Below the pieces are notes generated by a model. That model made no database searches, was not told the DNA's origin, and worked only from the letters and a program-made list of their open reading frames with translations. From positions 1 to 64,000 of the IMG/VR virus record IMGVR_UViG_3300025848_000001: a DNA stretch of 64,000 nt; one strand, given 5' to 3'. The first letter of the stretch is position 1, and every line of letters begins with the position of its first letter. Below are positions 32,712 through 64,000 of the stretch, in pieces. Source of the DNA: a virus. Its lineage: Duplodnaviria > Caudoviricetes. A program made the position numbers and the translations under genes.

Positions 32712-33746
32712 TTAGGAAGCAACCTTAACGTTCTTAACAACGACCCAAGCATCTGCTTGTTCAATTTGAGCTCCAACACGAGTATACATTGTATATTCGA
32801 TAGAGTCCTTCTTTGGCCAGAAGAAACGATAGACAGTGACATCACGCTTGATACCAATAACAACGTTATTTGGGAATGTCAAGTGGATATCGCCCTGATC
32901 TGAATCAGCGCCCTGAGTTTCCTTAAGCAAAGGAACTTCAACAATCGGAATACCGAATGCGAATGGAGCTGTGAATCCTGCTGGGCCACCAAGACCTGCT
33001 GTATCGCCACGGATAATGCTTGCTGCAATATCTTGTGGGTTTACGTTCTGGATATTTTGTGATGTTGAATACAAATAATCCTGAATTAGGTTTGATCCAG
33101 AAAGGAAGCGAAGGTCTGGACGACGTTGCTTGTACTTTCTTGGAAGTGCCTTGAGGGCATTATTGAAGACTTCACGGGAGATGTTAGCGCCATCGGCGTC
33201 AACAACGTGACCGTTTGCCTTTGCAATCTTTACAATGCCATCAAAAGCTTTGTATAGATTGTCAGATGAGAGAGATGTATCACCATTAAGAACTACATCT
33301 TCAAGATCATTACCAGCCTGTGTTGCCATCAGACGTGCAATGTGGTCTTCTAGATCGGCACCTTCGATATTGTCTTCGAGAGACTCTGTTGAAAGTTCCC
33401 AATCAAGACGTAGCTTCTTGGTTGTAAGAGAGATCTTTGAGAATTGTACGGCAGCGTTTGTGCCAGTATTCTCAGCTTCAGAAGCAAGCTTCATAAGCTT
33501 CTCACCTACGCCAATACGATCAATCTCAGTCGTATCAGCTCGCATGCGAACTGTACGTGCTAATTTACCGACTACTGTTGCATCGAACATGTAATCGAGG
33601 AATCGTGCAGACTGCTCTGGATTTAGTAGACCGCCTTTACCTTCGGATCCAACGTGGATACCGTCGGTGGGATCTGCTGCTCCAACCATGCTACCTGTCA
33701 TGGTAGTATCGGCTGCTGCTGCTTTAGCTAATAGTTCATTACTCAT
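32712..33746 (-). CDS. Major capsid protein (HK97 fold)
   Basis: GGLLNPEQ, LSTESLEDNIEG, VLNGD, FGIPIVEVP motifs; after protease/scaffold; codon usage visibly more C-ending. Confidence 0.93.
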   Translation of the reverse strand: MSNELLAKAAAADTTMTGSMVGAADPTDGIHVGSEGKGGLLNPEQSARFLDYMFDATVVGKLARTVRMRADTTEIDRIGVGEKLMKLASEAENTGTNAAVQFSKISLTTKKLRLDWELSTESLEDNIEGADLEDHIARLMATQAGNDLEDVVLNGDTSLSSDNLYKAFDGIVKIAKANGHVVDADGANISREVFNNALKALPRKYKQRRPDLRFLSGSNLIQDYLYSTSQNIQNVNPQDIAASIIRGDTAGLGGPAGFTAPFAFGIPIVEVPLLKETQGADSDQGDIHLTFPNNVVIGIKRDVTVYRFFWPKKDSIEYTMYTRVGAQIEQADAWVVVKNVKVAS

Positions 33747-63397: not shown

Positions 63398-63413
63398 TGT
63401 TTCACATGAAACA
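63398..63413. promoter_or_regulatory. parS-like palindrome
   Basis: TGTTTCACATGAAACA, one mismatch to the bacterial parS consensus TGTTTCACGTGAAACA; intergenic. Confidence 0.7.
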
Positions 63414-63527: not shown

Positions 63528-63719
63528 TCACCATTTACCAAGAGGACATGTGGCATTTTCTAATTTAGCCTTAGCAGGCATAATACAGCCACATTTCTTG
63601 CATTGTTGTGTTAATTGTATTAATTCAGGACATTTATCACAAATATCCAGTCTATAGGTATATAGTTCTTCTTTTGATCTAGGTTGTTTTGGATTAAATA
63701 GGTCCCAGGGTTTTACCAT
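63528..63719 (-). CDS. Cys-rich small protein (DUF6171-like)
   Basis: RLDICDKC...CKKCGC...CPLGKW. Confidence 0.7.
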   Translation of the reverse strand: MVKPWDLFNPKQPRSKEELYTYRLDICDKCPELIQLTQQCKKCGCIMPAKAKLENATCPLGKW

Positions 63720-63747
63720 TGATTCCCCCTTTTAAATATTAAGATAG

Positions 63748-63822
63748 TAGGCCTAATCGGATTTGAACCGATACTCGATTGTATATAAGACAATTGCTTT
63801 CACCAGATTAAGCTATAGGCCC
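63748..63822 (-). tRNA. tRNA-Ile (anticodon UAU), CCA not encoded
   Basis: Cloverleaf: GGGCCTA/TAGGCCT acceptor stem, GCTT/AAGC D stem, ATTGT-CT TAT AT-ACAAT anticodon arm, ATCGG-TTCAAAT-CCGAT T arm, discriminator A. Confidence 0.9.
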
Positions 63823-63897
63823 AAAGAATATTTGGATTGCTATGCCAGATATGATGGTTATTATGGCTATTGCTGTTATGGTGATAAGTAGTCTCAT
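63808..63897 (-). CDS. 29-aa Ile-rich ORF overlapping the tRNA-Ile 5' end (candidate leader peptide)
   Basis: MRLLITITAIAIITIISGIAIQIFFGPIA; 8 ATA + 3 ATC codons; AAAGGCGG upstream. Confidence 0.5.
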   Translation of the reverse strand: MRLLITITAIAIITIISGIAIQIFFGPIA

Positions 63898-64000
63898 TTT
63901 AGATTTTTCCCGCCTTTTCTTGTATATATATAATATATATTATATAGTGATATCTGGGAATATTAGATTTTAGGAAAGCCCCCCTACCCCCCAAAAAGAA

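Follow-up and report, generated by a model that had tools for sequence, protein, structure and literature searches.

A mini-ORF fused to tRNA-Ile(UAU) in some 80 phage fragments suggests control of tRNA production by its translation

Introduction

In the leader-peptide attenuators of Escherichia coli and Salmonella, such as ilvL, hisL, trpL, and thrL, a very short translated open reading frame (ORF) that is rich in cognate codons heads the regulated gene. In Streptomyces, the bldA tRNA-Leu(UAA) limits the translation of TTA-containing genes, acting in trans on dispersed targets, and rare-codon gating of this kind is known in actinobacteria. In animal mitochondria, ORFs abut tRNAs without a spacer, the 5' cleavage of the tRNA sets the 3' end of the mRNA at or inside the stop codon, and polyadenylation completes the stop codon after the cleavage. 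Phage tRNA genes are usually viewed as passive codon supplements, and in the full-text literature we found no description of phage tRNA output control or of tRNA genes controlled by a leader ORF. Among arrangements studied experimentally, E. coli secG-leuU is the closest to the one described here: once RNase P has released the mRNA from the tRNA, this mRNA decays within 30 s; secG has a complete stop codon and a 14-nt spacer before the tRNA (PMC2241853).

Here we analyze a phage locus at the end of a 64,000-nt stretch of DNA (the window), which is the first 64 kb of a 119.8-kb contig with a GC content of 34% and eight tRNA genes. Freshwater and river metagenomes are the source of the DNA. The major capsid protein shares 58 to 62% identity with those of Streptomyces siphophages of ~125 to 135 kb, which suggests an actinobacterial host. 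A sequence-only reading of the window had pointed to an AUA-rich leader ORF that runs into the tRNA decoding AUA and had proposed, by analogy with attenuators, that the pair may work as a feedback sensor of tRNA supply.

Results

Codon reading of the minus strand confirmed the 29-codon ORF of that reading (Table 1). Its isoleucines are encoded by ATA at codons 7, 10, 12, 13, 16, 19, 23, and 28 (n = 8) and by ATC at codons 5, 15, and 21 (n = 3), with no ATT. Placement of the tRNA by ARAGORN and Rfam likewise bore out that the last four codons and the stop (GGG CCT ATA GCT TAA) double as the beginning of tRNA-Ile(UAU), where they cover the 5' strand of the acceptor stem, nt 8 and 9, and the start of the D arm. 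The mini-ORF includes the RNase P cleavage site, the RNA immediately 5' of the tRNA is mini-ORF throughout, and, given that their sequences overlap, the two are expected to lie on one transcript. In the tRNA gene, C74 is encoded and the full CCA is absent, and the G1-U72 wobble pair is kept in 40 of 41 versions (the window plus 40 relatives). None of the other seven tRNAs of the genome has a comparable abutting ORF. Within 1 kb around the locus there are 15 ORFs of at least 20 amino acids (aa), and one ORF on the opposite strand overlies the mini-ORF region.

Table 1. Features at and around the mini-ORF and tRNA-Ile(UAU), in window coordinates
Feature	Position	Strand	Description
Mini-ORF	63808..63897	-	29 codons, hydrophobic, Ile-rich; product MRLLITITAIAIITIISGIAIQIFFGPIA
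tRNA-Ile, anticodon UAU	63747..63822	-	ARAGORN; Rfam tRNA RF00005, 71 bits
Overlap, 15 nt	63808..63822	-	ORF codons 26-29 plus TAA = tRNA nt 1-15
Codon 16, ATA	63850..63852	-	Sole invariant Ile codon in the family
ORF + tRNA cassette	63722..63906 (approximate)	-	Present or absent as one ~180-nt block between SD and Zn-ribbon ATG
Left-edge SD-like motif	63906-63917	-	AAAGGCGG at 63917..63910; AAAGGCGGG at 63909..63917; AAAGGCGGGAA
Right-edge SD-like motif	63723..63733	-	AAAGGGGGAAT; now serves the Zn-ribbon gene
63-aa Zn-ribbon gene, DUF6171 / phrog_13558	63528..63719	-	Downstream, same strand; 60 relatives in IMG/VR
Conserved untranslated leader, 3' part	63898..64000	-	Whole leader ~170 nt, starting beyond the window
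Opposite-strand ORF	63842..63973	+	Overlies the mini-ORF region
parS-like palindrome	63398-63413		GTTTCAC(G/A)TGAAAC
Major capsid gene	32712-33746	-	0 ATA in 21 Ile codons

We searched for relatives starting from either part of the pair. Scans with tRNA-sequence patterns found 20 viral and 24 metagenome loci, with a homologous ORF directly upstream of the tRNA in every evaluable one, and the pattern was absent from bacterial and archaeal genomes. The reverse scan, which used a degenerate DNA pattern for peptide codons 10 to 19 only, returned 47 loci, all of them family members, with tRNA-Ile(UAU) right behind the ORF wherever the 3' sequence sufficed. A search started from the peptide alignment found no versions beyond those close to the window's own. 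The 79 evaluable loci, from phages or metagenomes, represent 47 distinct versions of a mini-ORF of 25 to 31 codons. The ORF adjoins tRNA-Ile(UAU) in all 79 and runs into it in each case, and in these scans the mini-ORF was never found apart from the tRNA. At least four different acceptor stems and at least five genomic contexts occur, with flanking genes that differ on both sides and that switch exactly at the mini-ORF ATG and just past the tRNA 3' end. The ORF and the tRNA are one mobile two-part module of ~150 nt.

A blastn search of the region against cultured phages gave no match. The cassette of a relative matched cultured phages in its tRNA half only, and the match in Streptomyces phage Annadreamy is a tRNA-Ile(GAU) without such an ORF. 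At one locus, L112 (7191-7343, plus strand), a tRNA-Lys(UUU) follows 3 nt after the tRNA-Ile, and the mini-ORF heads a small tRNA array.

Alignment of the regions upstream of the Zn-ribbon gene showed that the cassette is present in the window (REF), L002, L008, and L010 and absent in L003 and L004, whose Zn-ribbon protein is 97 to 98% identical, as well as in L005 to L007, L009, and L011. The close relatives without the cassette lose the ORF and the tRNA together. In the cassette-less relatives (L003 to L007, L009, and L011), the left-edge motif lies 4 to 7 nt before the Zn-ribbon ATG and is the ribosome-binding site of that gene. The Shine-Dalgarno (SD)-like sequence previously assigned to the mini-ORF is therefore present but borrowed from the neighboring gene, and in the window 11 nt separate its GGCGGG from the mini-ORF ATG. 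In other contexts, the left motif is translated as the K-G-G-K at the C-terminal end of a 37-aa Zn-ribbon protein whose gene lies upstream. The SD-like motifs at the two edges of the cassette, AAAGGCGGGAA and AAAGGGGGAAT (63906-63917 and 63722-63733), resemble each other, and the cassette-less relatives have a single copy, a pattern that fits gain or loss by recombination between short repeats.

The untranslated leader upstream of the mini-ORF starts at a promoter-like TTGACT-18-TATACT (genome positions 64106..64077, minus strand), is highly conserved in relatives with different upstream genes, and has no Rfam family match. A long pyrimidine/purine hairpin (G6-N3-G6 tract) is predicted in it, together with an AT run, and its role may be that of a regulatory 5' UTR or of a small RNA. 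We noticed two further motifs in the neighborhood. The parS-like palindrome, which could mark recombination joints or a binding site, lies ~330 nt downstream of the cassette in the window, just 3' of the tRNA in L008, L067, L070, and L092, and just 5' of the cassette in L076. The motif GT(C/T)GACTA(A/G)(A/G)AT, often within the palindrome TAGTCGACTA, occurs at genome positions 64134, 65495, 60700 (-), and 111202 (+) and in L065, L068, L069, L088, and L094; it overlaps the -35-like TTGACT/TCGACT and is found upstream of early-looking promoters and, in other contexts, directly upstream of the cassette. At L124 (7319-7674, minus strand) and similar loci, the cassette sits within a string of micro-genes. 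The order in L124 is a 37-aa CxxC...CxxC Zn-ribbon gene, whose stop overlaps the mini-ORF start, the mini-ORF, the tRNA, and a gene for a 25-aa membrane peptide, and at loci of this type the canonical AAGGAGG of the last gene is located 2 to 10 nt past the tRNA. A possible internal promoter at the conserved CATATATG was rejected, having no acceptable -10 on inspection and a varying sequence (TGTATATG, ATCATATC).

The mini-ORF carries a coding signature throughout the family. Most versions start with ATG (43), the others with GTG (3) or ATT (1); codons 1 to 22 align gap-free, and column variability (entropy) is highest at codon position 3 (1.30), followed by position 1 (0.94) and position 2 (0.50). 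Internal stops occur in none of the 47 versions in the ORF frame and in all 47 in the +1 frame. All four codons occur at Gly18, and three each at Ala11 and Val14; pN/pS is 0.2 to 1.0 with a pS of 0.4 to 1.0, and synonymous sites are near saturation between subfamilies. This signature identifies the mini-ORF as a conserved, translated coding gene whose predicted peptide is under purifying selection at the amino acid level. A short translated ORF of 25 to 31 codons directly upstream of the tRNA is, in this respect, the same layout as in leader-peptide attenuators. In many contexts, the mini-ORF ATG overlaps the TGA (ATGA) of the upstream 37-aa Zn-ribbon gene; in others, a promoter-like -10 lies 6 to 8 nt before the start, a spacing that would allow leaderless translation.

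The peptide has the consensus M-[KR]-x-[IL]-x-[TW]-[IV]-[GT]-x-[IV]-A-[IL]-x-[VT]-[HC]-I-C-G-[IL], that is, a basic residue at position 2 (K/R), W/T at position 6, and a run of ~20 hydrophobic residues, then [HC]-I-C-G with the glycine at position 18. The window's subfamily ends I-I-S-G and has lost the His and Cys residues. No relative of the peptide was found in Pfam, PHROGs, or the ESM Atlas. In its small size and hydrophobicity, it is like the toxins of type I toxin-antitoxin systems, which are repressed by cis-encoded antisense RNAs. This is a new and widespread mini-protein family that gene callers have missed and that is absent from Pfam and PHROGs.

The stop codon falls into three classes. 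In 25 versions it is a TAG whose G is tRNA nt +1 (1-nt overlap), in 7 it is a TAG at tRNA nt 8 to 10 (10-nt overlap), and in 15 it is a TAA at tRNA nt 13 to 15 (15-nt overlap), so that the overlap lies in two frames across the family. Several switches between classes have occurred by small indels or stop loss (e.g., L119 and L142), and none of the 47 versions has a stop wholly upstream of the tRNA. Because the stop always needs tRNA nucleotides, RNase P cleavage at +1 would remove it, and processing must turn the mini-ORF mRNA into a non-stop message. From the same anatomy, we infer that a terminating ribosome would always sit on the acceptor stem and the cleavage site. The nucleotides that precede tRNA +1 are CUA in the commonest class.

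We then compared the isoleucine codons with those of the genome. The 105 long ORFs use ATT, ATC, and ATA in proportions of.51,.06, and.43; the probability of no ATT in 10 Ile codons is 8e-4, and that of at least 7 ATA among 10 is 0.085. Among 28,117 segments of 25 codons taken from the long ORFs, none has at least 7 ATA or at least 8 Ile codons. The neighboring 204-aa gene uses ATA for 15 of its 22 Ile codons (68%), the 95th percentile of the ATA share per gene is 0.69, and the ATA share of the window's mini-ORF as such is not exceptional for this genome. In the 47 versions, with the codons inside the tRNA left out, Ile is encoded as ATA.56, ATC.30, and ATT.15, compared with ATA.39, ATC.12, and ATT.48 in long ORFs at the same loci, and the count of ATA per mini-ORF ranges from 2 to 8. 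ATA thus stays the commonest Ile codon in relatives, as had been predicted, but its share is only modestly raised (0.56 versus 0.39) and ATC is enriched even more. The third codon position shows a general shift in the family (T.22 versus.42, C.24 versus.09), so the avoidance of ATT is partly non-specific.

Two points single out ATA. The first is codon 16, which is ATA in 47 of 47 distinct versions, while the codons beside it vary synonymously (TGT 23, TGC 18; GGA 19, GGC 14, GGG 9, GGT 2). Homologs that conserve hydrophobicity alone, with mixed Ile codons, which would have spoken against a sensor, are not what the relatives show; the invariance of codon 16 could, however, stem from the hairpin described below or from common ancestry. 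The second is the major capsid gene, which has no ATA among its 21 Ile codons and the highest third-position C in the genome, so that ATA is not simply an "optimal" codon or the style of highly expressed genes here. The phage carries an AUA-reading tRNA and uses ATA for 43% of Ile overall, yet its major capsid gene uses none.

RNAalifold analysis of 41 leader-plus-tRNA sequences returned the cloverleaf only, with compensatory changes in 9 of 21 pairs, which indicates that the tRNA-Ile(UAU) is functional and evolving. Apart from the tRNA, Rfam at a permissive threshold gave nothing credible. In most subfamilies, a three-tier hairpin spans codon 13 to nt -1, i.e., the 3' half of the ORF, with a mean z of -2.9 over 47 versions. 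In 16 ungapped sequences, 95.5% of the cells of this hairpin are paired, against 25 to 53% in slid controls, and the covariation score is 0.184 versus 0.102 for shuffles, with 0 of 500 shuffles reaching 0.184. Among the pairs in which both partners have changed is one at synonymous third positions (UGC/CUG with UGU/CUA). At the base of the hairpin, CCUAGU with ACUAGG forms a stem that takes in nt -4 to +2, paired in 90.6% of cells, and is thereby predicted to bury the RNase P cleavage site and two acceptor-stem nucleotides in most lineages. The window's own subfamily is without the leader hairpin (-1.7 kcal/mol, z about 0).

Predicted pairing of the 5' half of the ORF with the D and anticodon arms of the tRNA beats codon-shuffled controls in 7 of 18 representatives; this long-range pairing lacks a family-wide consensus and compensatory changes, and it is disrupted by half of the synonymous sites. 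At the ORF-tRNA junction, we found no terminator-like site, the conserved hairpin has no U run behind it, and the overlap of 1 to 15 nt leaves no space for a terminator or antiterminator. A Rho-loading site, C-rich and G-poor, was considered for the leader but rejected as a family feature, since it is confined to the window's subfamily. In four metatranscriptome runs, both the ORF and the tRNA are represented by contigs, some of which extend across the junction (e.g., L001 3753-3914, 0 mismatches), a weak hint of an unprocessed precursor; as these data are assembled contigs, DNA carry-over is possible, and the parts they do not cover are uninformative.

Discussion

The two-way linkage of ORF and tRNA, the absence of a spacer, a stop codon that the cleavage site shares, and a covarying hairpin that includes tRNA nucleotides argue for a cis relation between leader translation and tRNA maturation. 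The Ile/AUA content, above all codon 16, makes the speed of AUA decoding its natural input. We tentatively propose a coupling in cis between leader translation and tRNA 5' processing that responds to the speed of AUA decoding. With a shade less confidence, we suggest the more specific possibility that the phage tRNA regulates its own supply, in that the dwell time of ribosomes on AUA, chiefly at codon 16, would set the exposure of the RNase P site.

Under this proposal, leader translation and tRNA 5' maturation would be mutually exclusive on each RNA molecule, and the time that the ribosome spends on Ile/AUA codons would set the outcome. Given the size of its footprint, a ribosome paused at codon 16 would hold codons 13 to 19 and leave nt -20 to -1 and the tRNA free, while one at the stop would occupy +1 to about +13. 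RNase P prefers single-stranded leaders. A ribosome waiting at an AUA codon (chiefly codon 16, 27 to 45 nt upstream of +1) would hold the 5' strand of the hairpin; the cleavage site would then be single-stranded and the tRNA free to fold, and RNase P could cut. If AUA is read fast, the ribosome would move onto the 5' end of the tRNA, and after its release the hairpin would re-form. The supply of the AUA-decoding tRNA would thereby come under negative feedback. In the window's subfamily, where the hairpin is lost, only the simpler occlusion step would operate.

Several points stand against feedback. The very subfamily in which the idea arose is hairpin-less, and the ATA excess is modest and accompanied by an ATC excess. 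The tRNA needs one cut only, and occlusion by a ribosome would be transient unless unprocessed precursors are also degraded. A host tRNA-Ile2 reading AUA may make the signal non-specific to the phage tRNA, and the conserved residues (K/R at position 2, W/T at position 6, and G at position 18) would fit a functional protein. The sensor as first proposed is thus partly supported: the fusion and the ATA codons are kept in relatives, whereas the modest ATA excess, an overlap that changes between 1, 10, and 15 nt and between two frames, and the borrowed SD weaken it.

The main rival, which we hold only slightly less likely than the proposal above, is that the peptide itself is the payload: a small membrane protein with a single pass and a role of its own in infection, tied to the tRNA through its AUA codons, either by co-adaptation or by tRNA-gated synthesis. 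Such gating would resemble that of TTA genes by bldA in Streptomyces, and the overlap would be ordinary phage gene packing. Purifying selection on the amino acid sequence and the conserved residue pattern agree with this explanation, and other tiny genes, for membrane and Zn-ribbon proteins, crowd the region. The SD of the next gene at 2 to 10 nt past the tRNA indicates that tight packing is general here, and a capsid identity of 58 to 62% to Streptomyces phages would place the system in a suitable, actinobacterial host. However, dependence in trans needs no physical fusion, yet the spacer is 0 nt in every version, and recombination has cut exactly at both ends of the module and never between ORF and tRNA. 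A payload gene would also have no complete stop upstream of the cleavage site, so that its processed mRNA is always non-stop, and it would share its sequence with a hairpin that covaries at synonymous sites and includes tRNA nt +1 and +2. The loss of His and Cys in the window's subfamily (I-I-S-G) and the lack of a Pfam, PHROG, or Atlas relative likewise do not favor it.

It is unlikely that cis coupling exists without any sensing, the translated leader and the hairpin merely aiding tRNA expression inside a protein-coding operon. Ribosomes running up to the tRNA would block Rho-dependent termination and RNase attack, the hairpin would insulate the tRNA from mispairing with flanking mRNA, and the Ile/AUA content would be incidental to a hydrophobic filler ORF. 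The tRNA does lie within polycistronic units with no untranslated gap, the hairpin is backed by covariation, the ATA enrichment is modest, and RNA-library contigs bridge the ORF-tRNA junction, the last point being weak given possible DNA carry-over in such contigs. But a 22-residue core, an invariant ATA at codon 16, and avoidance of ATT would not be expected to persist in a filler across saturated synonymous divergence; the other tRNAs of the same genome do without such an ORF, and the hairpin is missing in the window's subfamily.

A chance open frame in an AT-rich pre-tRNA leader, in which only the RNA matters and there is no gene, is very improbable, for although short ORFs are abundant at this locus (15 of at least 20 aa within 1 kb), the SD spacing of 11 nt in the window is poor, and the RNA hairpin explains part of the sequence conservation, the ORF frame is free of stops in a family where the +1 frame never is (0/47 versus 47/47), the start codon is conserved, variability follows the order 3>1>2, the Gly, Ala, and Val codons turn over synonymously, and the ATG overlaps the stop of the upstream gene in many contexts.

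What would stand even without the sensor proposal is the mini-protein family, the strict linkage of gene and tRNA, and the non-stop mRNA expected from RNase P processing. The module is compact (~150 nt) and naturally replicated in 47 versions, with the ORF and the tRNA sharing the cleavage site and the stop codon, and this makes testable the long-open question of whether the level of a tRNA can be sensed through the decoding of its own codon.

Among known systems, secG-leuU is similar in having a small membrane protein gene and a tRNA on one transcript, with separation by RNase P being predicted for the phage. It differs in that the phage stop is shared with the tRNA, the phage ORF has 25 to 31 codons, and the phage pair moves as a cassette; no cognate-codon link is reported for secG-leuU, unlike the phage module. 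The tRNA punctuation of animal mitochondria also has zero spacer and cleavage inside or at the stop codon. In the phage, however, the cleavage removes the stop, and we know of no mechanism that would complete it afterwards. With bldA, the module shares a dedicated tRNA for an uncommon A-ending codon and, as the capsid suggests, the actinobacterial setting, but here the ORF with the codons and the tRNA gene are joined into one piece of DNA, and any limitation of AUA decoding in the host is putative.

The attenuators are like the phage module in their very short translated ORF ahead of the regulated sequence and perhaps in its richness in cognate codons, and ilvL, like the mini-ORF, has a hydrophobic look from its richness in Ile, Leu, and Val alone. 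Unlike typical leader peptides, the phage peptide is conserved in amino acid sequence. The regulated product would be a tRNA and not a biosynthetic enzyme, the ORF ends inside the regulated RNA, and any control would act through folding and RNase P processing instead of transcription termination. Lacking a terminator/antiterminator pair and the space for it, the module is not a classical attenuator, and the analogy drawn in the sequence-only reading holds only loosely. If the proposal is true, the phage module would be a case of leader-peptide sensing, as in ilvL and its kin, applied to tRNA maturation and not to transcription termination.
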